64,000 nucleotides of DNA. Source: a bacterium. GTDB taxonomy: Bacteria > Patescibacteriota > Minisyncoccia > Minisyncoccales > CG1-02-41-26. Below the pieces are notes generated by a model. That model did not search any database. It was not told the DNA's origin and saw only the letters and a program-made list of their open reading frames with translations. Made by a program: the position numbers and the translations under genes. The stretch is taken from NCBI GenBank assembly GCA_030616605.1, contig JAUWWY010000001.1:132251-196250 (forward strand). The letters are read 5' to 3'. Shown piece by piece: positions 330 to 60,990 of the stretch (position 1 is its first letter; every line of letters starts with the position of its first letter).

Positions 330-415
330 TACGGGGGTATGTAGCTTAATTTTGATATCTTGACAAGGAAGCTGGACACAGTAAAATTAAAGTAATGGTA
401 ATGTAATCATTTCTA

Positions 416-1099
416 ATGGTTCGATTTATGTCTAGGCTTCCCATAGAAACAAAAGAAAAAGCTTTCGATTTGAGGAAAAAAGGTTATTCAGTCAAAGAGA
501 TAGCTGATAAATTGGGTATTGCCAAAAGCACTTCTTCTCTTTGGGTTAGACATATAAAACTAAATAAAAAGGCTCAAGAAAGATTAAAGAAAAGACGTCT
601 TCTACCTTATTATAAAGCGGCTCTACGATGGCAAAAGAAAAGAGCCAAGAGGAAACAAGAATATTATTTTTCAGCACTTAAAATAATAAATAAAATAAAA
701 AGAGACTCTAATCATTACAAAGTATATTGTGCACTTCTTTATTGGTGTGAAGGAGGAAAAGATGCAACCCACGGAGTAAGATTCGTTAATTCTGACCCTG
801 TACTTATTCAAAGTTTCTTAAAACTTTTTCGGAGCGCATTTAATGTTGACGAAAAGAAGTTCCGTGTTCTTTTACACCTTCATGAGTATCATAATGAAGA
901 AAGGCAAAAGATTTTTTGGGCTAATCTAACTAAAATTCCTAAAAATCAATTTCATAAAACTTTTTATAAATTCCATACAAAAAAAAGAATTAGAGAAGGT
1001 TATCCAGGTTGTGCGGCGATATACTATAATGATTGTAAAATTGTCCGAGAACTTCAAGCGATTTATAAAGCTTTTTCCAAAAAAATGGGGACGTGGTGA
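416..1099 (+). CDS. HTH protein with LAGLIDADG-like (homing-endonuclease fold) C-terminal half
   Basis: N-terminal KKGYSVKEIADKLGIAKSTSSLW helix-turn-helix. LLYWCEGGK resembles a LAGLIDADG motif. The stop lies inside tRNA-Trp. Confidence 0.35.
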   Translation: MVRFMSRLPIETKEKAFDLRKKGYSVKEIADKLGIAKSTSSLWVRHIKLNKKAQERLKKRRLLPYYKAALRWQKKRAKRKQEYYFSALKIINKIKRDSNHYKVYCALLYWCEGGKDATHGVRFVNSDPVLIQSFLKLFRSAFNVDEKKFRVLLHLHEYHNEERQKIFWANLTKIPKNQFHKTFYKFHTKKRIREGYPGCAAIYYNDCKIVRELQAIYKAFSKKMGTW

Positions 1100-4525: not shown

Positions 4526-5056
4526 ATGTCTAAAAAAATTGCCATCATTATTGCTTTCAAGGATTTTCGGGATGAAGAATATTTTATTCCCAAAAATATA
4601 TTTTTAGAAAAGGGAATAGAAGTTAAAACGGTTAGTAGCAAAAAGGGTAAAGCCCTTGGGAGCTACGGAGGAGTAATTGATGTTGATTTGTGTTTAGAGA
4701 AATTGAATGTTTCTGATTTTGATGGAATTGTATTTGTTGGGGGAAGTGGAGCAGAAAAATATCTAAACGACGATAAATGTCATCAGATAGCCCAGGAAAC
4801 AATTTCTCAAGGCAAGGTTTTGGCGGCAATTTGCATAGCTCCCGCAATTTTAGCCAGAAGTGGAGTTTTGAAAGACAAAAAGGCTACTGTTTGGCAAAGC
4901 AACATGGATAAATCATTAGTTAAGATTTTAAAAGAAGAAGGAGCAGATTATCAGGAAAAACCAGTAATTATTGATGGAAATATTGTTACGGCAGACGGAC
5001 CCCAATCAGCCAGGAAATTTGCTGAAATGATTGTTAGGGTGTTGACAAAATTATAA
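4526..5056 (+). CDS. DJ-1/PfpI family protein
   Basis: FVGGSG and the AAICIAP nucleophile-elbow Cys motif. Confidence 0.8.
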   Translation: MSKKIAIIIAFKDFRDEEYFIPKNIFLEKGIEVKTVSSKKGKALGSYGGVIDVDLCLEKLNVSDFDGIVFVGGSGAEKYLNDDKCHQIAQETISQGKVLAAICIAPAILARSGVLKDKKATVWQSNMDKSLVKILKEEGADYQEKPVIIDGNIVTADGPQSARKFAEMIVRVLTKL

Positions 5057-5086
5057 AATAGATTAAACTTTAGAGTGTAAGTATAT

Positions 5087-5156
5087 CCCACAGACAGTAG
5101 GCATTAAATAAGACCTACTCAGGGAAAGCAAGAGAGTATTTTGTTTTGTCTGTGGG
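5087..5156 (+). promoter_or_regulatory. candidate L10 (rplJ) autoregulatory leader
   Basis: Perfect 10-bp helix CCCACAGACA (5087-5096) with TGTCTGTGGG (5147-5156) encloses the hairpin GTAGG/CCTAC. It lies just upstream of rplJ. TTGACA-N16-TAAACT promoter at 5042-5069. Confidence 0.45.
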
Positions 5157-5173
5157 AAACCACAGATTTTTTT

Positions 5174-5701
5174 ATGGCAAAGACTCGTCAAGAAAAAGAG
5201 AAAATAATTAAGGATTTAGAAGAAGAGCTTACTAAAAATGAAGCAATAGTTTTGGTTGATTTTAAAGGTTTGGATTCTAAATCTCTCTTTGATTTGAGAA
5301 GTAGATTGAGAAAATCAAAGTGTTTTTTAAAGGTTATAAAAAAGACTTTATTGGAAAAGGTTTTAGAAAAGCTGAAGAAAAAAGAGCTCGGAGAAAAAAT
5401 TAAAGAGATTAAAACCGAGATAGCTTTGGTTTTTGGTCTTGAAGATGAAATAGTTAAGGCTAAAATTTGTTATCAGTTTTCAAAGGAAAACAAGAATTTA
5501 GAAATTTTAGGTGGAATAGTCGGAAATCAGTTTTTAGAAAAAGAAAAAATGATTGAATTAGCTGAACTGCCTTCAAAACAAGAACTTTTCTCAAGATTAG
5601 TTGGAAGCTTACAGAATCCCATTTCAAATTTTGTCTATATTTTAAAAGGCAATATTAAAGGTCTAATTTATTCGCTTAAGGCAATAAAAGAAAGTAAATA
5701 A
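5174..5701 (+). CDS. rplJ: 50S ribosomal protein L10
   Basis: [12 protein letters not shown] start and position directly upstream of rplL. Start trimmed to 5174 so it clears the leader helix. Confidence 0.85.
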
Positions 5702-5709
5702 ATAATATT

Positions 5710-6153
5710 ATGGCTGAAGAAAAAAAAGAAAAGATTAAAGAAGAGGAGAAGGTTGAGATTCCAAAAAAATTCAATAAAATAGTTGAAGAAATTGAAAAAA
5801 TGACAGTTGTAGATTTAGCAGAATTGGTTAAGATTTTAGAGAAGAAATTTGGCGTTTCTGCTATTCCTCAGGTTGTAGCCCAAGCAGAGGTTCCAGCAGC
5901 CGGCCAAGAAGCCGGTGGAGCTGCTGAAGAAAAAAGTGTTTTTAACATTGTTATTCAGGAAATAGGAAATAAGAAAATTGAAGTAATAAAAGCTGTTCGC
6001 GATATAACTCAAAAAGGATTGAAGGAATCAAAAGATTTAGTTGATTCTATAGAAAAAGAACCCCAGACAATTAAAGAAAATGTTAAAAAGGAAGAAGCAG
6101 AAGAAATCAAAAAAAAGTTTGAAACAGCAGGAGCAAAGGTGGAATTGAAATAG
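5710..6153 (+). CDS. rplL: 50S ribosomal protein L7/L12
   Basis: LEKKFGVSA, an Ala/Glu hinge, and a C-terminal [24 protein letters not shown]. Extra KE-rich N-terminus. Confidence 0.9.
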
Positions 6154-13060: not shown

Positions 13061-14743
13061 ATGAAAAATCTGAAAGTTAAATTTATCTTTTTTCTTTTTT
13101 GTTGTTTTGCTTTTTTAATTATTTTTAAATTATATAATCTCCAGATAAAAAATGGAGATTATTTTGAAGCCCTGGCTTTAGGCCAACAAATTGATTTTCC
13201 AGAAATAAGCGGCGAGAGAGGGGAGATTTTTTTTAATAAAGGGGAAGTTCCCTTAGCTCAAACCGAAGAGAAAAACATAGCCTATATTTTTCCTGGAAAA
13301 ATCCCAGAACAAGATTTAGAAAAGACCTTAGAAATCCTATCAGATATTTTAGCTGAGAAAAAGGAAAACCTTGTTTCTCTTTTTGAGAAAGAAAAAGTTT
13401 TTAAAAGAGAATTATCAAAAGAAAATTATCAAAAAATAGAATCCCTTCATCTTAACGGGGTTTCTTTAGACAAGATTTGGGTCAGAAACTATCCTCAAAA
13501 AAACTTAGCTTCTCATGTTCTTGGTTTTTTGAACCAAGAAGGAAAAGGTCAATATGGGATTGAGGGTTATTATGATGAAATTTTGAAAGGAACTGAGGGT
13601 TTTAGAGAAAAAGGGAGATCACCGCTTGGTTATTTAATTTTTGGCGACAGTTCCCCAAAAGAATCTTCTTTTAAAGGAGCAGATATTTTTTTAACATTAG
13701 ATTACAATATCCAGTATCTTTCTGAAAAATTATTACTCAAAGCTAAAGAAAATTGGGATATTGATTCAGGTCAGATTATAGCTTTAGAGCCTTCAACTGG
13801 TGAAATTTTAGCCTTAGCTGTTTTTCCCGGATTTGATCCAAATCATTACTCAAAAGAGAAATCACTTGAGATATTTCTTAACTCCTCTTTTCAAAAACTT
13901 TTTGAACCAGGTTCTGTTTTCAAACCAATAACTTTTGCCTCGGCTTTAGAAGAAAATTTAATAAGCCCGGAAACTACTTATGAAGATGAGGGCCTTGTTG
14001 AACTTGGAGGACCGCCAATTTATAATTTTGAAAAAAGAGTTTGGAATACTCAAACTATGACTGATGTTTTAGAGGAATCAATTAACACCGGAGCTGTATT
14101 TGTTCAGCAGGAGCTTGGCAGAAATCTTTTTTTAAACTATTTGGAAAAGTTTGGCCTTTTTGAAAAAACAGAAATTGATTTACAGGCAGAAGAGTTTTCT
14201 TTAAATAAAACTTTAAAATCAGGCTATCCTCGGGATATAGCCACAGCCAGTTTTGGCCAGGGAATTGAATTGACACCTTTTCAATTAGTCAGGGCTTTTG
14301 GAGCAATAGCCAATGGAGGCAATTTAATGAAACCCCATATTGTTAAAAAAATTGTCAAAACAAACAATCAAGTTATTGAAACTGAACCAGAGATTCAAAG
14401 AAAAGTGATTTCCGAAGCAACTTCAGCAGAACTTATCTCAATGCTTGTCAGTGTTGTAGAAAACGGTTCTGGCAGGCGGGCAAAAATCAATGGTTACGAT
14501 ATTGCTGGAAAAACAGGAACTGCTCAAGTTCCTCAAAAAGAAAAAAGTGGTTATTCAGAAACAGAAAGCATTCAAAGTTTTGTTGGTTTTCTGCCAGCTT
14601 CTGAACCAGAAATTTTAATTTTTTTAAAATTAGATAATCCCAAAGGAGTAAAAACAGCTGCTTATTCTGCTGTTCCTTTATTTCGAGAACTGGCAAAATA
14701 TATCATTGATTACTGGCAAATCTCCCCAAATATGATAGAGTAA
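13061..14743 (+). CDS. ftsI: class B penicillin-binding protein (FtsI/PBP2-type transpeptidase)
   Basis: SVFK (SxxK), SINTG (SxN) and KTGTAQ motifs with an N-terminal TM segment. Confidence 0.85.
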   Translation: MKNLKVKFIFFLFCCFAFLIIFKLYNLQIKNGDYFEALALGQQIDFPEISGERGEIFFNKGEVPLAQTEEKNIAYIFPGKIPEQDLEKTLEILSDILAEKKENLVSLFEKEKVFKRELSKENYQKIESLHLNGVSLDKIWVRNYPQKNLASHVLGFLNQEGKGQYGIEGYYDEILKGTEGFREKGRSPLGYLIFGDSSPKESSFKGADIFLTLDYNIQYLSEKLLLKAKENWDIDSGQIIALEPSTGEILALAVFPGFDPNHYSKEKSLEIFLNSSFQKLFEPGSVFKPITFASALEENLISPETTYEDEGLVELGGPPIYNFEKRVWNTQTMTDVLEESINTGAVFVQQELGRNLFLNYLEKFGLFEKTEIDLQAEEFSLNKTLKSGYPRDIATASFGQGIELTPFQLVRAFGAIANGGNLMKPHIVKKIVKTNNQVIETEPEIQRKVISEATSAELISMLVSVVENGSGRRAKINGYDIAGKTGTAQVPQKEKSGYSETESIQSFVGFLPASEPEILIFLKLDNPKGVKTAAYSAVPLFRELAKYIIDYWQISPNMIE

Positions 14744-21856: not shown

Positions 21857-23254
21857 TTAGCGAGGCATGGTTCTTATCTTTGGACCCTCTTTGCTGTCCT
21901 CAATTTTATAGCCGAGTTTCTCAATTTTTCTTCGGATTTCATCAGCTTGCTGCCAATTCTCCTGGTTTCTTGCCTTTTCTCGAAGTTTTCCTAACTCTTT
22001 AATTTCTTTTGGCAAGATTTCTTTTTCTTTAATTCTTTTAAAATCCAAAAAGCCAAAGATTTTGTTGATTTTTTTGAAAAAATTGTAAATCTCTTCTGCT
22101 TCTTGAGGCGAAAGTTTATTTTCTGAAATTCTTTTATTTGTTTCAGCCAAAAAATCAAAGATTAATCCTTTGGCTTGAGGAGTGTTAAAATCATCTTCTA
22201 AAACTTTGAAAAAAGATTTTTCAAAGTTTTTTACAATCTCTTTTCCATTTTCTTTTGGACCCTTTTTTAATTCTTCTAATTTCTTTAGTAATTCTTTTAA
22301 TTTTTGGAGATTTGTTTTTGCCTCTTGAGCTATTGCTTCCGAATAATCAAGAGGGGAGCGATAATGACTGGAAAAAACAATAAATCTTAAAACTTCTGGT
22401 TTATATTTTTTAAGAAAATCTTTTAAAGTAATAAAATTACCCAGAGATTTTGACATTTTTTGGCCGTTGACAGTCAGAAAACCGGCATGAATCCAATATT
22501 CAACCATTGGTCTTTTATCTGAAAGAGCTTCCATTTGAGCGATTTCTGCTTCGTGATGAGGGAAAATTAAATCTCTTGCTCCACCGTGAATATCATATTG
22601 AGGACCAAAATATTTTTCAGTAATTGCTGTATCTTCAATATGCCAGCCTGGCCGACCATTTCCCAAAGAACTTTTCCAATATGGTTCTCCAAATTTCCAT
22701 AAACAGAAATCGCCTCTGTTTCTTTTATTTTCGGCTTGGTCAATCCGGGAAACAGCGTCTTCAGCTTGCTCTATTGTCCTACCAGAGAGCTTTCCGTAAT
22801 CTTTAAACTTTTTAATATTATAATAAATTCCACCTCTAATTTCATAAGCATATCCTTTTTTCAGTAATCTTCTAACCTGGTTTTGGACTTCTTTTATGTG
22901 GCTGGTTGCTCTGGCATACTTTGTGACACTCTTTATATTCAAGGCTTTCATATCTTTTAGATATTCTTTTTCAAATTTTCTGGCAATTTCTTTCCAAGTT
23001 GTTTTCTTTTCTTTTGCTCTCTGAATAATTTTATCATCAATATCAGTAATATTTTGTAAATAAAAAACCTTATATTGCTGATATTTTAGATAACGAACGA
23101 GCATATCATAAACAATATAAGTCCTGGCATGGCCTAAATGGGAAAAATCATAAACCGTTGGTCCACAGACAAAGAGATTAACTTTTCCCCTTCTTATCGG
23201 TTCAAAATCCTCTTTTTTTCTGAAGAGAGTGTTGTAGAATTTGAGCATATTCAT
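21857..23254 (-). CDS. cysS: cysteine--tRNA ligase
   Basis: HLGHARTY (HIGH) and KMSKSLGN. A TATAAT 7 nt upstream of the second ATG suggests a leaderless MLKF start. Confidence 0.9.
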   Translation of the reverse strand: MNMLKFYNTLFRKKEDFEPIRRGKVNLFVCGPTVYDFSHLGHARTYIVYDMLVRYLKYQQYKVFYLQNITDIDDKIIQRAKEKKTTWKEIARKFEKEYLKDMKALNIKSVTKYARATSHIKEVQNQVRRLLKKGYAYEIRGGIYYNIKKFKDYGKLSGRTIEQAEDAVSRIDQAENKRNRGDFCLWKFGEPYWKSSLGNGRPGWHIEDTAITEKYFGPQYDIHGGARDLIFPHHEAEIAQMEALSDKRPMVEYWIHAGFLTVNGQKMSKSLGNFITLKDFLKKYKPEVLRFIVFSSHYRSPLDYSEAIAQEAKTNLQKLKELLKKLEELKKGPKENGKEIVKNFEKSFFKVLEDDFNTPQAKGLIFDFLAETNKRISENKLSPQEAEEIYNFFKKINKIFGFLDFKRIKEKEILPKEIKELGKLREKARNQENWQQADEIRRKIEKLGYKIEDSKEGPKIRTMPR

Positions 23255-23333: not shown

Positions 23334-23870
23334 GTGGCAGCTGAAATTCAAACATTTTTACTGGCAATGACGCCTGTTGGAGAACTGCGGCTTTCTTTGC
23401 CCTTGGCTTTAACTGTCTACAATCTAAATTGGGGAGTAGCTTTTTTGATTTCAGTAATTGGAAATTTGGTTCCGGTCATAGTGATTCTTTTGTTTTTGAA
23501 ACCTCTTTCCAACTGGCTTTCAAGAAATTTTAAGATTTGGCAAAGATTTTTTTCCTGGCTTTTTGAAAGAACCAGGGAAAAACACCAATCCAAGATAAAA
23601 AAATATGGTTATCCTGCCCTGATTCTTTTTGTTGCTATTCCTTTACCAATTACTGGTGGTTGGACTGGAAGTTTAGTTGCTTTTTTGTTTGATGTACCCT
23701 TTAAAAAAGCCTTTCCTCTAATTACCATAGGTATTGTAATTGCCGGTTTCATAGTTTCCTTTTTAACTCACGCTGGAATTACCATTGAAAAATATCTCGG
23801 CTGGCAAGTTCTGGTCGGATGTTTAATAACCATTGGATTTATCTGGTTAATATACAGATTAAAGAAATGA
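23334..23870 (+). CDS. small multi-pass membrane protein (COG2426 small multidrug export-like)
   Basis: MTPVGELRLSLPLAL and a 4-5 TM pattern. GTG start is uncertain. Confidence 0.45.
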   Translation: MAAEIQTFLLAMTPVGELRLSLPLALTVYNLNWGVAFLISVIGNLVPVIVILLFLKPLSNWLSRNFKIWQRFFSWLFERTREKHQSKIKKYGYPALILFVAIPLPITGGWTGSLVAFLFDVPFKKAFPLITIGIVIAGFIVSFLTHAGITIEKYLGWQVLVGCLITIGFIWLIYRLKK

Positions 23871-26206
23871 ATAATTTAGTTTTATATCGAAAACATCGTC
23901 CCAAGACATTTGCTGAAGTAGTTGGCCAAGAGCATGTGGTTCAAACCCTGACTAATGCCATTGCTTCGGGAAAATTTTCCCATGCCTATTTATTTACCGG
24001 ACCTCATGGCTGCGGAAAAACTACTATTGCCCGTCTTACAGCCAAAGCAGTAAACTGCCAGAAGAGAGAACAAGGGGATTTTGAACCCTGTAACCAATGC
24101 GATTCCTGTCAGGAAATTAATCAGGGAAATGCAATTGATTTAATTGAAATTGATGCTGCTTCCAACCGGGGAATTGATGAAATAAGGGATTTAAAAGAGG
24201 GGATAAGATTTGTTCCTGTTAAATCAAAATATAAGGTTTTTATTATTGATGAATGTCTTACTGGCGATCATTTTATCACCTTAAGTGATGGAAGGGTAAA
24301 AAACATTTCTGAAATAAAAAATGGAGAAAAAGTGGCATCTGTTGATGTAAAAACAGGGAACATTGTTTCTGGCGAGGTAAAAAATTGGTTCAAAAGAGAA
24401 ACTAATCAGATTATTGAAATAAAAACTCCCCAAGCTTTTCTTAGGTGTACTTCCACTCATCGACTCTGGATTATGAGAGATAATAAATTTTTACTAACCG
24501 AGGCTAAAGATATTAAAATTGAAGATTTCCTGTTAAGTCCTGTTTATTTACCTCATGTTCAGAAAAATAATCTTTCACCTAGTCAACTTGCTTTACTCGC
24601 TTTAATCCAGTGTGATGGCCATGTATCTAAGGACTCGATTACAGTACAAATAGAGATCCAAAAAGATAAAGATTATTTTAAAAAAGTTTTTGAAAAAGGT
24701 CTAAGAGCTTGGCAAATAAAGGAAAAATCAATAATCAAAGAAACGTCTCGAGGAACAAGATTAATTAGAGTTTATTCTAAAAAGTTAAAAGATACTTTAA
24801 TTAATTTAGGTTGTCCTCAGGGTAAAAAAGGTAAAAAAATTGATATTCCCGATGTTGTTTTCCAAGCCCCTCTCGAAAGCATCAAGGCTTACATTGATAC
24901 TTGTTTTTGTTGCGAGGGAAATATAGATTTTAATAGGTCTCTCAATCTTTATAGATTGAATTTTAATTCTACCTCTGAAATTTTTACTAAAAAACTTCAG
25001 CTCTTACTCAAAAAATTTGGTATTTCCAGTAGTTTTTTGAGAATTCCAAGAAAAAGAAGAAATAAAAATCATTCTACTCAATATCGTCTTTGTCTATCAC
25101 ATTATAATCTTAAAATTTTTCATAAAAAAATTGGGTTATCTTTACAACGAAAAGCTAAAATCTTATTAAAATGTTCATTAGAAAAGGAAAAACAAGATAC
25201 TATTCCAATCGAGAAGATAGTTGTCGAAAAGCAGAAAGAAATAAAATTACCATATTTGTTGCGGGCTTCACTTGGAATTTATCCGGATTTAAGACAGCAT
25301 TTATCAAGGAGAGCAGTAGTAAATTTTATGAAAGCAGGGAGTCTACCTGAATTAAATAAATATTTACAATTTCGATATGAGAAAGTTAAAAAAATTAAGA
25401 TTTTAAATCAGAAAGAAGAAGTGTACGATTTTACAGTAGGGAATACTCATACTTTCATTGCAAATGGAATTTGTTCTTCAAATTCACACCAGTTAACCAA
25501 GGAGGCAGCCAATGCCTTATTAAAAACCTTGGAAGAGCCGCCTTCCCATGCTATTTTCGTTTTAGCCACTACCGAAGCTTATAAAATGATTCCTACTATT
25601 ATCTCAAGATGCCAGAGATTTGATTTCCGAAAATTAACTATGCCAGAAATCATAGGGAGGTTGAAAACAATCTTAGAAAAAGAAGAAATAAAGTTTGAGC
25701 CAGAAGCTATAAATTTAATTTCTTTCTCAGCTAATGGCGCAATTAGAGATGCTGAAACCCTTTTGGACGAAGTTGTAAGTTTTTCAGGCAAAGAAAGATT
25801 TATTAAAAAAGACCTGGTAGAAAAACTTCTGGGAATAGCTGACAGAGAAATGATTTTTAAATTTTTAAACTTCCTCAACCAGAAAAAAGCAAAAGAATCA
25901 ATTGAATTTTTAAACGAAATTATCTACAAAGGGATTGACCTTCAGGAATTTACAAAATCTTTAATTCAATATCTGAGAGAGGCTTTACTTCTGAAAATTG
26001 ATTCCCAATTTGAAAATCCTTTGTTTTTAGGATTAACAAGCGAACAAAAAAATGAACTTAAATCTTTGGCTGAAAATTTCCCTGAATCAGAACTTAAAGA
26101 AATCCTTGAAAAATTTGTTGTTGTTGAAAACAAAATAAAATACGCTTCAATCCCTCAACTGCCCCTAGAACTGGCAATAGTTGAAATCTGCCAAGAAAAG
26201 AAGTAA
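23867..26206 (+). CDS. dnaX: DNA polymerase III subunit gamma/tau, interrupted by an intein
   Basis: HAYLFTGPHGCGKTT Walker A; VFIIDE then an insert, then SHQLTKEAANALLKTLEEPP and SRCQRF. ATGA overlap with the upstream gene. Confidence 0.9.
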   Translation: MNNLVLYRKHRPKTFAEVVGQEHVVQTLTNAIASGKFSHAYLFTGPHGCGKTTIARLTAKAVNCQKREQGDFEPCNQCDSCQEINQGNAIDLIEIDAASNRGIDEIRDLKEGIRFVPVKSKYKVFIIDECLTGDHFITLSDGRVKNISEIKNGEKVASVDVKTGNIVSGEVKNWFKRETNQIIEIKTPQAFLRCTSTHRLWIMRDNKFLLTEAKDIKIEDFLLSPVYLPHVQKNNLSPSQLALLALIQCDGHVSKDSITVQIEIQKDKDYFKKVFEKGLRAWQIKEKSIIKETSRGTRLIRVYSKKLKDTLINLGCPQGKKGKKIDIPDVVFQAPLESIKAYIDTCFCCEGNIDFNRSLNLYRLNFNSTSEIFTKKLQLLLKKFGISSSFLRIPRKRRNKNHSTQYRLCLSHYNLKIFHKKIGLSLQRKAKILLKCSLEKEKQDTIPIEKIVVEKQKEIKLPYLLRASLGIYPDLRQHLSRRAVVNFMKAGSLPELNKYLQFRYEKVKKIKILNQKEEVYDFTVGNTHTFIANGICSSNSHQLTKEAANALLKTLEEPPSHAIFVLATTEAYKMIPTIISRCQRFDFRKLTMPEIIGRLKTILEKEEIKFEPEAINLISFSANGAIRDAETLLDEVVSFSGKERFIKKDLVEKLLGIADREMIFKFLNFLNQKKAKESIEFLNEIIYKGIDLQEFTKSLIQYLREALLLKIDSQFENPLFLGLTSEQKNELKSLAENFPESELKEILEKFVVVENKIKYASIPQLPLELAIVEICQEKK
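24254..25483 (+). mobile_element. 410-aa intein with LAGLIDADG homing-endonuclease domain, in the DnaX Walker B/sensor region
   Basis: Starts with Cys1 (CLTGDH). Block B is TSTHRL. LAGLIDADG motifs are LLALIQCDGHV and AYIDTCFCCEGNIDF. Ends VGNTHTFIANGICSSN followed by Ser+1. Confidence 0.85.
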
Positions 26207-36847: not shown

Positions 36848-36885
36848 ACCAAAAAATCGCCAAGAAGGCGATTTTTTGGTAATTA
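36848..36885. terminator. T-P module copy 1 (14-bp bidirectional hairpin plus TGGTAATTA)
   Basis: ACCAAAAAATCGCC-aagaa-GGCGATTTTTTGGT. Confidence 0.75.
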
Positions 36886-37217
36886 AAAAAGAAAAGGGGG
36901 AAGCACACTTGGTAGGTACCAGCAGTATGCTTCCCCTTAATTCGGAGACTCTCGAGAACCCGCTTAAGAGAGAGGTATTGCACTGTCGACTTCACAGAAG
37001 CTGGCGCCTCTGCTTCGTTGTCTCCCTCTTATTCTACACACTTAAGAGATTCTCCAGGGCGCTTTTCACAACCTTAGGGTTGTTACTTTCACAAGAGTCA
37101 GACGACCGGGATTCGAACCCAACTTCTCCAACCTTCAGGAACGGCTTTGGACTACGTCCAAATTCCCCAAAGACTTAACGGAGCGCTTACCAGAAGCTCG
37201 CCTTTTTTCCGAACCCT
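36886..37217 (-). ncRNA. unclassified GC-rich structured RNA candidate (about 330 nt)
   Basis: About 50% GC within an AT-rich background. Minus-strand TTGACA (37252-37247) with an AAATAT -10. Minus-strand terminator GGGGAAGCA..TGCTTCCCC plus CTTTTCTTTTTT. Dense nested helices. The plus-strand ORF is not protein-like. Confidence 0.45.
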
Positions 37218-37258
37218 AAATCTATATTTATTCAGAAACTATAATTTGTCAAGTAGGT

Positions 37259-40065: not shown

Positions 40066-40095
40066 ATCGCCAAGAGGGCGATTTTTTGGTAAAGT
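40066..40095 (+). promoter_or_regulatory. T-P module copy 2
   Basis: ATCGCC-aagag-GGCGAT-T6, then TGGTAAAGT. The ATG lies 6 nt after the -10. Confidence 0.65.
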
Positions 40096-40101
40096 AAATC
40101 A

Positions 40102-41229
40102 ATGGAACCATTAGCTTCAAAAATCAGACCAAAGACCTTGAAAGAATTCGTGGGTCAGAGTCATTTAGTTGGCGAAGGAAAACCTTTGAATGTTGCCATA
40201 AAGCAAAAGCATCTGTTTTCGTTTGTTTTTTGGGGTCCGCCGGGAACCGGAAAAACAACTCTGGCGAAAATATATGCCAAAAGTTTGAATGCCAAGCTTT
40301 ACGAATTATCTGCGGTTTCCGCCGGCAAAGCAGATATCAGGAAAATAATTGAGGAAGATACGAAAAACTATCCCAAAGTTTTATTCTTGGACGAAATTCA
40401 CCGCTTCAATAAGGCCCAGCAGGATTTTCTGCTTCCTTATGTGGAAAGAGGGGATATGACTTTAATCGGAGCCACTACGGAAAATCCAAGTTTTGAAATA
40501 ATTGCGCCTTTGCTTTCACGCTGCAGGATTTTTGTTTTGTACGAACTTTCAGATAAAGAGATGGAAACCATCATTAAACGAACCAAATTCAAATTAGACA
40601 AGAAATCAATTGACTGGCTGATTAATATGGCAAACGGAGACGCAAGGCAGGCCATTACCATGCTTGAAAACACGAACGAACTTTATAAGAAGATCACTGT
40701 GGAAAATCTAAAGAACGCCTTGCAGTCAAAGTTCTTAAGATACGATAAAGTAGGGGAGGAACATTATAATACTATTTCAGCTTTTATTAAAAGCATGAGA
40801 GCAAGCCAGTCGGATGCGGCTTTATATTATTTAGCGCGGATGATTGATTCTGGCGAAAATCCCAAATTCATAGCAAGGAGAATGGTTATTTTCGCTTCAG
40901 AGGACATAGGCTTGGCCCAGCCCACAGCTTTGGTGGTAGCTAACGATGTTTTTAGAGCCGTGGAAATAATCGGGTTGCCCGAGTGTGGCATTAACTTGGC
41001 GCACGGAGTAGTTTATCTGTGCCAATGCAAAAAAGACAGAAGCGCCTACGAGGCCTATATGAAAGCTATGGAAGATGTTAAAAAATACGGAAACTTATCC
41101 ATACCTTTGCATTTGCGGAATCCGGAAACAAAACTAATGAAAGAACTGAATTACGGCAAAGGATATGAAAAATACTCCAAGGAATCTTTTCTGCCCGATA
41201 AGTTGAAAGGAAAGAAATACTTACAGTAA
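40102..41229 (+). CDS. rarA: replication-associated recombination protein A (MgsA/RarA AAA+ ATPase), short form
   Basis: FWGPPGTGKTTLA, LFLDEIHRFNKAQQD, and MgsA_C-like ISAFIKSMRASQSDAALYYL. Confidence 0.8.
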   Translation: MEPLASKIRPKTLKEFVGQSHLVGEGKPLNVAIKQKHLFSFVFWGPPGTGKTTLAKIYAKSLNAKLYELSAVSAGKADIRKIIEEDTKNYPKVLFLDEIHRFNKAQQDFLLPYVERGDMTLIGATTENPSFEIIAPLLSRCRIFVLYELSDKEMETIIKRTKFKLDKKSIDWLINMANGDARQAITMLENTNELYKKITVENLKNALQSKFLRYDKVGEEHYNTISAFIKSMRASQSDAALYYLARMIDSGENPKFIARRMVIFASEDIGLAQPTALVVANDVFRAVEIIGLPECGINLAHGVVYLCQCKKDRSAYEAYMKAMEDVKKYGNLSIPLHLRNPETKLMKELNYGKGYEKYSKESFLPDKLKGKKYLQ

Positions 41230-43549: not shown

Positions 43550-44125
43550 ATGAATAATGTTGAGATTGAAATCCAAGTTAATATTGAAAATAGTAAATCA
43601 TTAATAGATTTTTTGGAAAAAAATGGTCAATTTAAATCAGAAGAACATCAAAAGGATGAGTATTTTTCTCCAACTCATCGCAATTTTATTGAAGTCCGTC
43701 CAGTAAAAGAGTGGTTAAGGTTAAGAGATTCGGATGGTAAATATTCTATAAACTATAAGAACTGGTATTTTGATGAAGATGGGAAAAGTCGTCATTGTGA
43801 TGAATACGAAACAAAAGTAGAAGATTTGGCTCAAATCAAAAAGATATTAGAGGTTCTTAATTTTAAATCTATTGTTAAGGTTGATAAAATAAGAAAAACT
43901 TGGATATATAAAGATTATGAAATTGCTATAGATTCTGTGAAAGAATTGGGGGATTTTGTAGAGATTGAATATATCAATAAAGATGAAAAAGTAGACCCAA
44001 AAAAGGTTACAGAAGAAATGATTAATTTTCTTAAAAGTATTGGTTGTGGAAAAATAAAAAGAAACTATGTAGGTTATCCATTTCAGTTGTTATTTCCAGA
44101 AGAAGTAAAATTTGAGGAACAATAA
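43550..44125 (+). CDS. CYTH-domain protein (class IV adenylate cyclase / triphosphatase family)
   Basis: EIEIQV start, LRLRD, and a tunnel-fold pattern ending GDFVEIEY. Confidence 0.8.
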   Translation: MNNVEIEIQVNIENSKSLIDFLEKNGQFKSEEHQKDEYFSPTHRNFIEVRPVKEWLRLRDSDGKYSINYKNWYFDEDGKSRHCDEYETKVEDLAQIKKILEVLNFKSIVKVDKIRKTWIYKDYEIAIDSVKELGDFVEIEYINKDEKVDPKKVTEEMINFLKSIGCGKIKRNYVGYPFQLLFPEEVKFEEQ

Positions 44126-44155
44126 ATCGCCAAGATGGCGATTTTTTGGTAGAAT
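44126..44155 (+). promoter_or_regulatory. T-P module copy 6
   Basis: ATCGCC-aagat-GGCGAT-T6-GGTAGAAT. The ATG lies 7 nt after the -10. Confidence 0.65.
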
Positions 44156-44162
44156 GAGATAT

Positions 44163-58393: not shown

Positions 58394-59596
58394 ATGGCTA
58401 TAAATACTGACTCTAAAAAAATAAAAGAGATTTTGGAAAGGGGAGTAGAAAAGATTATTAAAGAAGAAAATTTATTAAAGAAACTAAAGAAAGGGAAAAA
58501 ATTAAGGATAAAACTTGGTATTGATCCAACTGGTCCTAAAATCCATATTGGTAGAGCTGTTCAACTTTGGAAACTAAAAGCTTTTCAAGAATTAGGCCAT
58601 CAGATTGTTTTAATTATTGGTGACTTTACAGCTCAAATTGGTGATGCTTCTGATAAGACATCGATGAGAAAGTCGTTAACAGAAGAAGAAATAAGGAAAA
58701 ATATGAAAGATTATCAAAGCCAGATTGCTAAAATCTTAGATATGAAAAAAGTTGAGGTTCGGCGAAATTCAGAATGGTTGGCCAAATTAAATCTTAAAGA
58801 ACTTCTGCCCATGACCATGGAATTTACTGCCCAGCAAATGATTCAAAGAAGGAATTTCAAAGAGAGGTGGAATAAAGGCAAAGCTATTGGAATCCATGAA
58901 TTAATTTATCCAATTTCCCAAGGATACGATTCAGTAATGGTAAAAGCTGATGTTGAAATTGGGGGATTTGATCAACTTTTTAATTTAAAAATGGGAAGAG
59001 AAATCCAAAGGATGTTTAGCCAACCCCCTCAAGATATTATGACTTTGAAAATGCTTTATGGTCTAGATGGTAGAAAAATGGCAACTAGCTGGGGCAACGT
59101 TATAAACATTGTCGATAAACCCGGAGAAATGTATGGAAAAGTTATGTCAATGAAAGATGAATTAATCGAAGATTATTTTGAGCTGGTAACCAAAATGCCC
59201 TTAAGGGAAATAAAAGTGATTAAAAAAGAATTGAAATCAGGAAAATTAAATCCCCGAGATGCTAAAGCACAATTGGCAAAAGAAATTGTAGCGCTATATC
59301 ACGGAAAAAAGAAAGCAAATAAAGCTCAAATAGAGTTCAATCAAGTGTTCAGAGAAAAAAAATTACCATCAAAAATTCCCATCTTTAAAACTTCAAAAAG
59401 GGTCTTGCCAATTTTAGATTTAATTTTCAATTCAAAATTGGCCTCTTCTAAGAGTGAGGCTAAAAGATTAATTTTAGAAAAAGGAGTAAAAATCAACACT
59501 AAAATAAAGACTGATTGGAAAGAAAAAATTAAAATTAAAGAGGGAATGATAGTTCAGGTAGGGAAGAGAAAATTTATAAAAATCAAATTAAAATGA
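58394..59596 (+). CDS. tyrS: tyrosine--tRNA ligase
   Basis: PTGPKIHIGRA (HIGH), KMATS (KMSKS-like), and a C-terminal S4 domain SKSEAKRLI. Confidence 0.9.
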   Translation: MAINTDSKKIKEILERGVEKIIKEENLLKKLKKGKKLRIKLGIDPTGPKIHIGRAVQLWKLKAFQELGHQIVLIIGDFTAQIGDASDKTSMRKSLTEEEIRKNMKDYQSQIAKILDMKKVEVRRNSEWLAKLNLKELLPMTMEFTAQQMIQRRNFKERWNKGKAIGIHELIYPISQGYDSVMVKADVEIGGFDQLFNLKMGREIQRMFSQPPQDIMTLKMLYGLDGRKMATSWGNVINIVDKPGEMYGKVMSMKDELIEDYFELVTKMPLREIKVIKKELKSGKLNPRDAKAQLAKEIVALYHGKKKANKAQIEFNQVFREKKLPSKIPIFKTSKRVLPILDLIFNSKLASSKSEAKRLILEKGVKINTKIKTDWKEKIKIKEGMIVQVGKRKFIKIKLK

Positions 59597-60990
59597 AAAG
59601 AATTCCAATAAATGAAACACCAAAATACCTCGGTAAACAAATCAAATTATCTGGTTGGGTCAATTCACGCCGGGACCACGGAAAGCTTATTTTTATTGAT
59701 TTAAGAGATAGGAACGGTCTGACTCAGGTAGTATTTGTTCCTCAAGAAAAAGAAATTTACAATTTGGCTCAAAAATTAAGGAATGAGTGGGTGGTTGAGG
59801 TAATTGGAAAGGTTTCTCAAAGACCCAAAGGAATGGAAAATCCAAAAATTGAAACAGGAAAAATTGAGGTAAAAGCCAAAGAGTTGAAGATTTTTTCAGA
59901 AGCTAAAACCTTGCCTTTTTCAATTGAAACTGATGGTCATGAAATAGGGGAAGAAAAAAGATTAAAATATCGCTATTTGGATTTAAGAAGAAAAAGGTTA
60001 CAAAAGAATCTGGATATCCGCCAAGAAGTAATCCGCTTTATAAGGGAATATCTCCAGCAAGAGAACTTTATAGAAATAGAGACGCCAATTTTAACCAAAT
60101 CTACCCCGGAAGGTGCTCGGGACTTTTTGGTTCCTTCAAGATTACAGGCTGGGAAATTTTATGCCCTACCTCAAAGCCCTCAACAATATAAACAGCTTTT
60201 GATGGTAAGCGGTATTGAAAAATATTTTCAGATTGCCAGATGTCTGCGAGATGAAGACCCAAGAGGCGACAGGCAAGCAGAACACACTCAGTTGGATATT
60301 GAAATGTCATTTGTGGAACAGGAAGACATTCTAAACCTGATTGAAGGCCTTTATTTAAATCTTTGTAAAAAATTATTTCCTAAAAAGAAAATTAAAGAAA
60401 TTCCTTTTCCGCGCTTTAACTATGAAGAAGTAATTAAGAAATATAATACAGACAAACCTGACCTCAGAAAAGACAAATCTAATCCAAATGAATTAGCTTT
60501 TTGCTTTATAACTAACTTCCCAATGTTTGAGTGGCATAAAAAAGATAAAAAGTGGGGACCTATGCATCATCCTTTTACAAAGCCCCAAACCAAAAATATA
60601 AAAGAAATTAATAAAAATCCAGAGAAGATTTTATCCTTTCAACATGATTTTGTATTAAACGGTAATGAAATTGGTGGAGGAAGCCTACGAAGCACAGATG
60701 CCGAAACACTAACAGCAGTTTTTGAGGTTTTAAGCCATAAAAAAGAAGAAATAAAAGAACGATTCGGCCATTTATTAGAAGCTTTTCAATACGGTGTTCC
60801 CCCTCATGGAGGAATAGCCATGGGAATTGATAGATTTTTGGCAATAGTCTTAAACGAACCAAACATCAGAGAGGTCATGGCTTTTCCGAAAACCGGTGAC
60901 AACCGAGATTTAATGATGGATGCTCCTTCCAAGGTTTCAAAAGAACAGTTGAAAGAACTCCATATTAAAGTAAGTAAAAAAAATGACTAA
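59593..60990 (+). CDS. aspS: aspartate--tRNA ligase, short form without the GAD insertion
   Basis: OB-fold N-terminus, FYALPQSPQQYKQLLM, FRDEDPRGDRQAEHTQLDIEMSF, and GGIAMGIDR. Confidence 0.9.
   Translation: MKRIPINETPKYLGKQIKLSGWVNSRRDHGKLIFIDLRDRNGLTQVVFVPQEKEIYNLAQKLRNEWVVEVIGKVSQRPKGMENPKIETGKIEVKAKELKIFSEAKTLPFSIETDGHEIGEEKRLKYRYLDLRRKRLQKNLDIRQEVIRFIREYLQQENFIEIETPILTKSTPEGARDFLVPSRLQAGKFYALPQSPQQYKQLLMVSGIEKYFQIARCLRDEDPRGDRQAEHTQLDIEMSFVEQEDILNLIEGLYLNLCKKLFPKKKIKEIPFPRFNYEEVIKKYNTDKPDLRKDKSNPNELAFCFITNFPMFEWHKKDKKWGPMHHPFTKPQTKNIKEINKNPEKILSFQHDFVLNGNEIGGGSLRSTDAETLTAVFEVLSHKKEEIKERFGHLLEAFQYGVPPHGGIAMGIDRFLAIVLNEPNIREVMAFPKTGDNRDLMMDAPSKVSKEQLKELHIKVSKKND

Follow-up and report, generated by a model that had tools for sequence, protein, structure and literature searches.

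What does a GC-rich stretch of an AT-rich bacterial genome encode when its only open reading frame is not credible as a protein? In the window (the whole 64,000-nt stretch of DNA analyzed here), the sliding GC profile revealed a GC-rich island at 36890-37215, with a GC content of 0.497 against 0.342 in the whole window, which agrees with the first-pass annotation (about 50% GC in an AT-rich background). The plus-strand ORF at 36876-37178, already considered implausible in that annotation, is present and corresponds to 100 aa, and it is spurious, its product having no relatives among 5.8 billion proteins. The minus strand folded with an MFE of -117.8 kcal/mol (z = -3.1) and none of 100 shuffles was as good, whereas the fold of the plus strand was weaker (-99 kcal/mol, z = -2.3). 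The dense nested helices noted earlier are present, as are the CAACC/GGUUG and UUUGGAC/GUCCAAA hairpins. Furthermore, two covariance models matched the locus on the minus strand only, with E values of ~1e-15 to 1e-22. Because the L1-stalk models and the T-loop described below fit the minus strand only, the strand was assigned as minus, settling what had been proposed as the likelier orientation of a structured RNA gene. The outer features of the locus are as follows.

36890..37215, minus strand: whole noncoding RNA, ~325 nt, delimited by GC content, fold z score and minus-only model matches
37247..37252, minus strand: TTGACA, -35 box of a putative promoter, read from the sequence
36885..36936, minus strand: intrinsic terminator, formed by a GGGGAAGCA...UGCUUCCCC hairpin that encloses a smaller one and by the CUUUUCUUUUUU tract after it, from sequence and MFE

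The TTGACA box was found where the first-pass annotation had placed it (37252-37247), and the accompanying -10 box proved to be weak (TAAATA/AAATAT, ~17 nt downstream of TTGACA). Since the box was read from the sequence only and a consensus promoter scanner gave no call at the site, the promoter is regarded as putative. The strong minus-strand terminator was recovered as described, with GGGGAAGCA (36936-36928) pairing with UGCUUCCCC (36905-36897) and CUUUUCUUUUUU extending thereafter to 36885; a simple terminator scanner gave no call at 36885-36936 because the loop is long. The 3' end of the RNA falls in the U-tract, and the 5' end was provisionally placed from the promoter and the start of helix P1 (see below). 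With its own -35 box and terminator, and with no same-strand gene downstream among the window ORFs, the locus is probably a stand-alone gene, and the RNA is predicted to be transcribed from the minus strand as a unit of ~325 nt.

None of the standard housekeeping RNAs accounted for the locus, as had been stated from inspection by eye. At gathering thresholds, Rfam 15 returned only four tRNAs elsewhere in the whole window and left the locus unmatched; at E <= 10, no tmRNA, RNase P, SRP, 6S or T-box RNA, nor any other plausible family, was returned for 651 nt around the locus. ARAGORN reported neither a tRNA nor a tmRNA there at default settings, and its tmRNA search was negative with relaxed settings included. 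The tRNA covariance model (RF00005) gave no match at the locus at E <= 10, and the tmRNA model (RF00023) matched just a 13-nt T-arm with 6.5 bits; therefore, the RNA belongs neither to the tRNAs by RF00005 or ARAGORN nor to the tmRNAs, standard or permuted. A permuted tmRNA was also rejected on structural grounds, with no downstream acceptor partner and no tag frame, and no tag-like frame with a typical tail was seen by eye at the locus. For RNase P RNA, inspection by eye showed neither the CR-I nor the CR-V motif, and the models were negative. The GAAGCAG suggestive of SRP RNA lies on the wrong side of its hairpin and proved to be part of H78, a helix described below. Membership in the RNase P, SRP, 6S, T-box and YrlA/bacterial Y RNA families was likewise not found, the last having no Rfam match and a different topology. 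The RNA does not occupy the position of an L1 autoregulatory leader, that is, upstream of rplK/rplA on the same strand. No Rfam family spans the whole locus, and the Rfam check proposed with the first-pass annotation yielded no clear assignment but a local match of a single module to the bacterial LSU rRNA model (RF02541), at only positions 2129-2212 of 2925, so that the RNA as a whole is not an LSU rRNA.

The identity of the 3' half emerged from sequence comparison. A sensitive blastn search against plasmid records gave matches at unannotated sites in Sphingomonas and Stammera replicons, and these sites are 23S rRNA genes, aligned at H76-H78. The 3' half of the RNA contains a module that forms the L1-stalk structural unit H76-H78, with the following parts.

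36956..37052, minus strand: replica of the 23S rRNA L1 stalk, H76-H77-H78, found by blastn, the LSU model, the model R1 (below) and alignment
37054-37039 paired with 36970-36954, minus strand: H76
37038-37030, minus strand: T-loop 1, UGUAGAAUA
37013-36994, minus strand: H78
36983-36976, minus strand: T-loop 2, GUGCAAUA

The first-pass annotation had concluded that the locus fits none of the standard housekeeping RNAs by eye. This holds for the locus as a whole; the helices AAGAGAGAG/CTCCCTCTT, which it had listed, belong with their surroundings to a copy of the 23S L1 stalk, which it had missed. When 161 nt were given as input, LSU_rRNA_bacteria matched 36963-37046 on the minus strand with 53.7 bits (E 8.9e-16), a local match covering 84 of the 2925 model positions; the match was absent on larger inputs because the speed filters dropped the region. 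We also built a covariance model of 97 positions (R1); its training set, five real 23S sequences plus seven phage modules, contained neither the window RNA nor its homologue L136. R1 scored 37052-36956 on the minus strand at 78.4 bits (E ~1e-22), which was the one significant match in the window (the runner-up reached 12.7 bits, E 0.64), and it gave no false matches on 636 kb of control loci.

Aligned with the LSU consensus, the window RNA reads GUGUAGAAUA / AGAGG / GA / GAC / AACGAA / GCAGAGGC / GCCA / GCUUCUGU / GAA / GUC / GACAGUGCAAUA / CCUCU. All helices of the L1 stalk are kept with other base pairs, and all conserved unpaired nucleotides are kept; for example, AGAGG/CCUCU stands where 23S has GGUGG/CCACC, and the module differs from every 23S sequence. 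All 30 invariant columns (30/30) are retained, both T-loops included. In an alignment of 14 sequences, 90% of the cells were paired in the L1-stalk structure and 21 of the 26 pairs had changed on both sides, values that 0 of 500 shuffles reached and to which no slid register came close. In the window RNA, helices 2-4 are paired throughout. Two departures were found: of the platform positions, G at 37037 and C at 36981, the C stands in the place of A2169, where nearly all other modules differ, and a nearly invariant G beside H77 (column 61) is not kept. The 3' domain is homologous to the ribosomal L1 stalk. It shares with the bacterial 23S L1 stalk (E. coli ~2093-2196) the secondary structure, the length and the 30 invariant nucleotides, those of the two interlocked T-loops and the H78 loop included. 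Unlike in 23S rRNA, the 97-nt module is isolated inside a 325-nt RNA with its own putative promoter and terminator and without an rRNA gene, its stems are recoded by compensatory changes, and residue 2169 is C rather than A.

Local similarity to 23S genes and to the LSU model could also come from a decayed 23S fragment, a pseudogene or an assembly chimera, lying beside a degenerate tRNA. We consider this explanation barely conceivable. Only 84 of 2925 model positions are represented, in flanks that bear no relation to 23S. The invariant loop bases are kept, while compensatory changes set the stems apart from every 23S sequence, and the locus has a promoter-like box and a terminator of its own. 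Besides, a homologue with the same multi-domain architecture exists, as shown below, and the compensatory changes together with this homologue contradict an rRNA pseudogene.

The 5' half of the RNA is a tRNA-like domain, not a tRNA. Its parts are listed here.

37100..37203, minus strand: tRNA-like domain, a closed cloverleaf-like unit in the MFE fold
37203-37198 with 37105-37100, minus strand: acceptor-like helix of 6 bp, AGGCGA with UCGUCU
37197-37185, minus strand: D-arm GCUU-CUGGU-AAGC
37183-37126, minus strand: long irregular arm replacing the anticodon arm
37106..37122, minus strand: T-arm UUGGG-UUCGAAU-CCCGG (GGGUUCGAAUCCC) with a canonical 7-nt T-loop at 37117-37111, from sequence

The arm at the anticodon position consists of a 5-bp stem with a 48-nt irregular insert, and the variable region is 3 nt long. 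The parts that form a tRNA elbow, namely, the T-loop and the GG in the D-loop, are present. The T-arm-like hairpin at 37122-37106 had been correctly recognized in the first-pass annotation, whereas its place inside a closed tRNA-like domain had not.

The two domains are held together by a frame of helices, of which P2 joins the tRNA-like domain to the L1-stalk domain.

37208..37215, minus strand: 5' strand of P1, GGUUCGGA, pairing with 36946-36939, from MFE and RNAalifold
37207-37204, minus strand: A-rich linker after P1
37092..37099, minus strand: 5' strand of P2, GACUCUUG, pairing with 36954-36947, recovered by RNAalifold
37069..37082, minus strand: P3 hairpin CAACC-CUAA-GGUUG between P2 and H76, from MFE
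36939..36954, minus strand: 3' strands of P2 (36954-36947) and P1 (36946-36939), with zero nucleotides between them

The order of parts is therefore P1, A-rich linker, tRNA-like domain, P2, P3, L1 stalk, the returning strands of P2 and P1, and the terminator. A metagenome scan, in which a T-loop had to be followed after 55-85 nt by UAGRAUANNNGGGAG and after another 30-60 nt by AAUACC, yielded one locus, L136, on a 2-kb contig, and no Rfam family matched this whole contig at gathering score. L136 shares the part order with the window RNA, from P1, the A-rich linker and the tRNA-like domain through P2, a hairpin and the L1 replica to the return strands and the terminator. Its T-arm is AGGGG-UUCGAUU-CCCCU, its hairpin at the P3 position is of similar size, and its L1 replica reached 88.7 bits with R1 and 57.3 bits with the LSU model. 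Folded alone and unconstrained, the tRNA-like domain of L136 gave an MFE cloverleaf that lacks a D-stem, with faint matches to tRNA-clan models (tRNA-Sec, 14.7 bits; Tymovirus tRNA-like element, 11.8 bits). Both family members have a canonical T-loop and a GG in the D-region.

The two RNAs are ~60% identical. Of the 51 aligned pairs in eight helices, 26 are the same, 4 have one-sided changes, 17 are changed on both sides and still paired, and 4 are unpaired in one sequence. P1 is conserved with one compensatory change from U-A to C-G, P2 has 5 of its 8 pairs changed on both sides and still paired, and the acceptor helix and the T-stem have two compensatory pairs each. From a plain MAFFT alignment of the two sequences, RNAalifold independently recovered the L1 helices as well as P1, P2 and the T-stem, and 18 of the pairs were compensatory. 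As P1 and P2 enclose both domains and covary, the two domains are parts of one RNA. The conservation check suggested with the first-pass annotation thus returned a single homologue that keeps the helices by compensatory changes; since the family has two members (n = 2), the covariation outside the L1 module represents one pairwise comparison. The support for an architecture conserved as a whole in one distant homologue may be called good, not definitive.

Other scans returned no further members. Scans of viral contigs for the ACUCUUGUGAA motif gave no new family members, and a scan with a T-loop and two UGUGAAR anchors gave 74 loci, all of which were ordinary tRNAs matched by chance; UGUGAA motifs are not enriched in the window.

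With ARAGORN at an 80% threshold (ps80) and introns allowed, the 5' domain could be drawn as 'tRNA-Leu(aag)' with a 41-nt intron. On this drawing, the locus might be a genuine tRNA-Leu(AAG), having a cloverleaf, the anticodon AAG and a 41-nt insert, next to an unrelated structured element; or else it might be a cis-regulatory leader of a neighboring gene. We regard both as very improbable. The acceptor stem as drawn is mismatched, a tRNA-Leu would need a longer variable loop, position 37 would be U, and the tRNA covariance model is silent at E <= 10. Bacteria are not known to splice introns as short as this one, and an independent tRNA does not account for P1 and P2, which enclose both domains and covary. 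A leader is at odds with the terminator that closes the RNA and with the lack of a downstream gene on the same strand.

The L1-stalk module was also found without the remainder of the RNA. A scan of viral contigs with the L1-stalk motif alone gave 16 loci, of which 3 were parts of real 23S genes and 11 were stand-alone modules on phage contigs; the other two were L148, a chance match in a coding region, and, for L151, a second copy at a contig end. The 11 stand-alone modules represent seven distinct sequences from environmental phage contigs (L138, L139, L140/L150, L141, L142, L149 and L151). Those of L139, L142 and L149 sit directly before an RBS and a start codon, and those of L140 and L150 are embedded in a different RNA of ~215 nt that lies in an array of tRNA genes. 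The phage copies and the window RNA have in common the 97-nt module, its invariant positions and its location outside rRNA genes; the phage copies differ from the window RNA by having neither the P1/P2 frame nor the tRNA-like domain, which was present in none of them. The combined type with both the tRNA-like and the L1 part was absent from the 2.9 million viral contigs scanned. A blastn search against GenBank phages returned only records with host 23S contamination.

The genomic neighborhood of the window copy was then compared. The flanking genes encode surface proteins (Ig-like, cohesin, dockerin and collagen-like), and the cohesin-like and collagen-like genes next to the locus are on the strand opposite to the RNA. 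This block of surface-protein genes is variable and shows no synteny in relatives. A conserved MgsA/RarA gene lies 3 kb from the RNA; relatives identified through it (90-98% identical) had entirely different neighbors and no RNA. The adjacent gene of 312 aa had only two homologues (63-67% identity), on short contigs without the RNA. Among seven housekeeping proteins, five were found in the protein collection, all as singletons at 90% identity, and close relatives are therefore not available in that collection. A prophage context was rejected for the window copy, as the PHROG tail-fibre matches of the neighboring gene are collagen repeats only, and no integrase, capsid or other phage gene was found near it. 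No TROVE/Rsr (Ro60) gene, the neighbor expected of a YrlA/Y RNA, was identified among the annotated neighboring genes scanned.

The phage modules raise the question of whether the window RNA is itself of mobile origin. As a decoy or hijacker, a phage or prophage RNA imitating a tRNA and the L1 stalk would distract a host defence nuclease or interfere with host ribosomes, with the window copy as its domesticated or resident form. This would fit the only homologue, L136, which adjoins a Mu Gam-like phage gene, the bare modules, which occur in at least seven distinct contigs of environmental phages and twice within arrays of tRNA genes, and the variable, non-syntenic block in which the RNA is found. 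However, phage genes are missing around the window copy and the combined type is missing among the viral contigs; moreover, no defence system is known to target the L1 stalk. Taken together, a decoy role seems improbable to us.

Whether the host has a uL1 protein bears on any role of an L1-stalk replica. The window is bacterial and CPR-like, being AT-rich and encoding DnaB, PBP2, a Mur ligase and a DNA polymerase III tau with an intein, and an archaeal origin was rejected on account of these genes. Shine-Dalgarno motifs are at background level (5/46 genes vs 8%). The rplJ-rplL genes are preceded by DJ-1, YceG and PCMT genes, not by rplK-rplA, and a Pfam scan of window ORFs, covering most of those >= 120 aa, gave neither rplK nor rplA. 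[quoted passage not shown] Nealsonbacteria lack uL1 (bioRxiv 10.1101/2022.04.20.488981); they are the best-named relatives of one window gene, which looks horizontally exchanged. On this circumstantial evidence from a 64-kb window, the host is probably without uL1.

If uL1 were present, the RNA could act in trans as a sponge or regulator that binds free uL1 with rRNA-like affinity, thereby titrating the repressor of the L11/L1 operon or storing and delivering the protein, and the tRNA-like domain would then be a mere folding or processing handle. A 55-nt 23S fragment of the L1 region suffices for specific binding of L1 (PMC2175363), and L1 recognizes the same motif in rRNA and mRNA (PMC2175363; PMC3616713). 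The window RNA keeps all invariant positions of the L1-binding region, and some phage copies, placed directly before an RBS and ATG, resemble translational operators. Nevertheless, the host resembles Parcubacteria without uL1, the replica with its full H76, both T-loops and H78 exceeds the small stem and bulge sufficient for L1 regulation, and the RNA deviates at the nearly invariant G of column 61. We keep the uL1 sponge as a tentative possibility on the unlikely side.

[quoted passage not shown] The reading that we prefer, and to which we give an even chance, is that the window RNA is a stand-alone, off-ribosome mimic of the L1 stalk, serving as a dock for a tRNA-type elbow and, where uL1 is present, binding this protein as well. 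Such an RNA would offer the surfaces by which the ribosomal L1 stalk binds its partners, but off the ribosome. Its stalk head would most likely dock a tRNA-type elbow. The elbow could belong to the RNA's own tRNA-like domain, with docking in cis or between two copies, or else to cellular tRNAs. In hosts having uL1, the RNA would also bind this protein, a possibility suggested by the conserved motif. Elbow docking, in favor of which stand the canonical T-loop and the D-region GG of both family members, is a prediction, as are uL1 binding and a physiological role. The geometry for docking in cis is not obviously right, as the elbow lies ~11 bp from the junction and the stalk head ~28 bp (P2, 7-8 bp; H76, ~16 bp; and a further 5 bp). 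The C at the A2169-equivalent platform residue of the window RNA counts against this reading, and so do the failure of the tRNA-like domain in tRNA models and a family of two members.

Because the host is probably without uL1, an RNA-only role is favored. A CPR lineage that has lost uL1 might keep an L1 stalk that is made of RNA only, works off the ribosome, is tethered to a tRNA-like domain and docks tRNA-type elbows; stated in this form, the proposal appears rather unlikely to us. One possibility under it is the formation of head-to-tail dimers or larger assemblies, and head-to-tail joining has reportedly been seen recently for other ornate bacterial RNAs. Another is the capture of deacylated tRNAs, or engagement of the ribosomal E site via the tRNA-like domain.

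The known bacterial tRNA mimics are tmRNA and the Y RNAs, and the known rRNA mimics are small cis-acting operators of ribosomal protein genes. With the tRNA-like domain of tmRNA and with YrlA/Y RNAs, the 5' domain has in common the T-arm, the GG-containing D-region, the acceptor-like helix and the replaced anticodon arm. Compared with tmRNA, its acceptor helix is closed inside the RNA, and there is no free CCA end, tag frame or pseudoknot series; compared with Y RNA, its anticodon-like arm is closed and its acceptor-like helix leads on into the other parts of the RNA. RNase P RNA (J11/12-J12/13) and stem I of the T-box are also tRNA-elbow docking modules, whose models did not match here; the window module is instead the ribosomal version with H78, and it comes without a catalytic core, specifier loop or antiterminator. 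The L1 autoregulatory mRNA sites (the rplK/rplA leader and the archaeal L1 operon) are likewise off-ribosome rRNA mimics of the L1 region. These operators are small, with a stem of 6-12 bp and a G-A bulge upstream of rplK or rplA (PMC3616713). They act in cis directly upstream of these genes, whereas the window RNA carries a full copy of H76-H78, terminated and alone, far from ribosomal protein genes and fused to a tRNA-like domain.

We found no description of free-standing L1-stalk RNAs in the searchable literature, and a separately transcribed fusion of an L1 stalk with a tRNA-like domain was absent from Rfam 15 and likewise not found in that literature. As the RNA failed the membership tests of every known family considered and the fusion is undescribed, we rate it as what appears to be a new RNA class, whose building blocks are familiar and which has one known structural module inside. 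It would be a case in which a whole functional domain of rRNA, the tRNA-ejecting L1 stalk, has been copied and fused to a tRNA-like domain. If functional, the RNA would offer a handle on how the reduced ribosomes of CPR bacteria cope without uL1, and on how phages tamper with translation via rRNA-like RNAs; it might also represent a fourth natural use of the double T-loop elbow dock, besides the ribosome, RNase P and T-boxes. Should the RNA-only stalk prove true, it would add a new kind of device linked to translation, either a ribonucleoprotein or one of RNA only, and a new RNA class shared with phages.

Stand-alone replicas of the 97-nt L1 stalk of 23S rRNA (helices H76-H78), lying outside any rRNA gene, were present on environmental phage contigs, at the following positions:

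L138 3860-3956, L1-stalk module
L139 2340-2436, L1-stalk module (the same in L144 and L146)
L140 4710-4806, L1-stalk module
L150 375-471, L1-stalk module
L141 633-729, L1-stalk module (the same in L147)
L142 2478-2573, L1-stalk module (the same in L145)
L149 1223-1319, L1-stalk module
L151 14-78, L1-stalk module

Two of the phage modules were located within tRNA gene arrays, and some were followed directly on the 3' side by a ribosome-binding site and an ATG. Against Rfam, the phage modules generated only local LSU matches. Two related phage contigs, L140 and L150, each carried two structured RNAs in tandem, with tRNA genes on either side and the L1-stalk module in the second RNA of the pair:

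L140 ~4675-5075, minus strand, tandem structured RNAs
L150 ~340-760, minus strand, tandem structured RNAs

Each of these RNAs started with GGAA(A)CGUACAGCA and ended with (A)CGUU(U)CC followed by a U-tract. An 11-nt string, ACUCUUGUGAA, occurred both in the second RNA and in the window RNA, a match that is probably due to chance.

The only full homologue of the window RNA, on the metagenome contig L136, was located downstream of a gene for a Mu Gam-like end-protection protein and a PHROG family 11311 protein, suggesting phage or prophage surroundings for this copy:

L136 30-1756, setting of the RNA homologue (Mu Gam-like gene and PHROG family 11311 protein)

A palindromic, terminator-like element, CCAAAAAATCGCC..GGCGATTTTTTGG, was repeated at unrelated sites, both within this genome and on other Patescibacteria contigs; one of those contigs had a copy on each side of MgsA:

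window 36851-36892 and 44125-44157, palindrome
L001 1694-1737 and 19923-19953, palindrome
L006 9964-9991 and 11144-11188, palindrome

The element looks like a REP-like repeated terminator. The MgsA/RarA gene of the window (40077-41222) was 97% identical in DNA to the metagenome contigs L001 and L002, where the flanking genes were entirely different, and 90-91% identical to further metagenome contigs. The similarity stopped sharply at the gene ends, which suggests that the gene is either unusually conserved or exchanged horizontally between Patescibacteria.

When the five window housekeeping proteins present in a collection of ~15 billion proteins were considered, CysRS, PBP2, a class II aminoacyl-tRNA synthetase, MurC and L7/L12 were all singletons at 90% identity. 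Examples of the genes are:

window 21857-23254, 13061-14743 and 59593-60990, housekeeping protein genes

No close relative of this genome has thus been sequenced, and this accounts for the small number of RNA homologues found. Separately, an intein containing a LAGLIDADG homing-endonuclease domain split the DNA polymerase III tau/gamma gene (window 23819-26206). In window 4526-6153, DJ-1/PfpI, YceG and PCMT genes, not rplK-rplA, lay upstream of rplJ-rplL, and Shine-Dalgarno motifs preceded 5 of 46 genes in the whole window, a frequency at background level. Both observations fit Parcubacteria without uL1 and the anti-SD motif.
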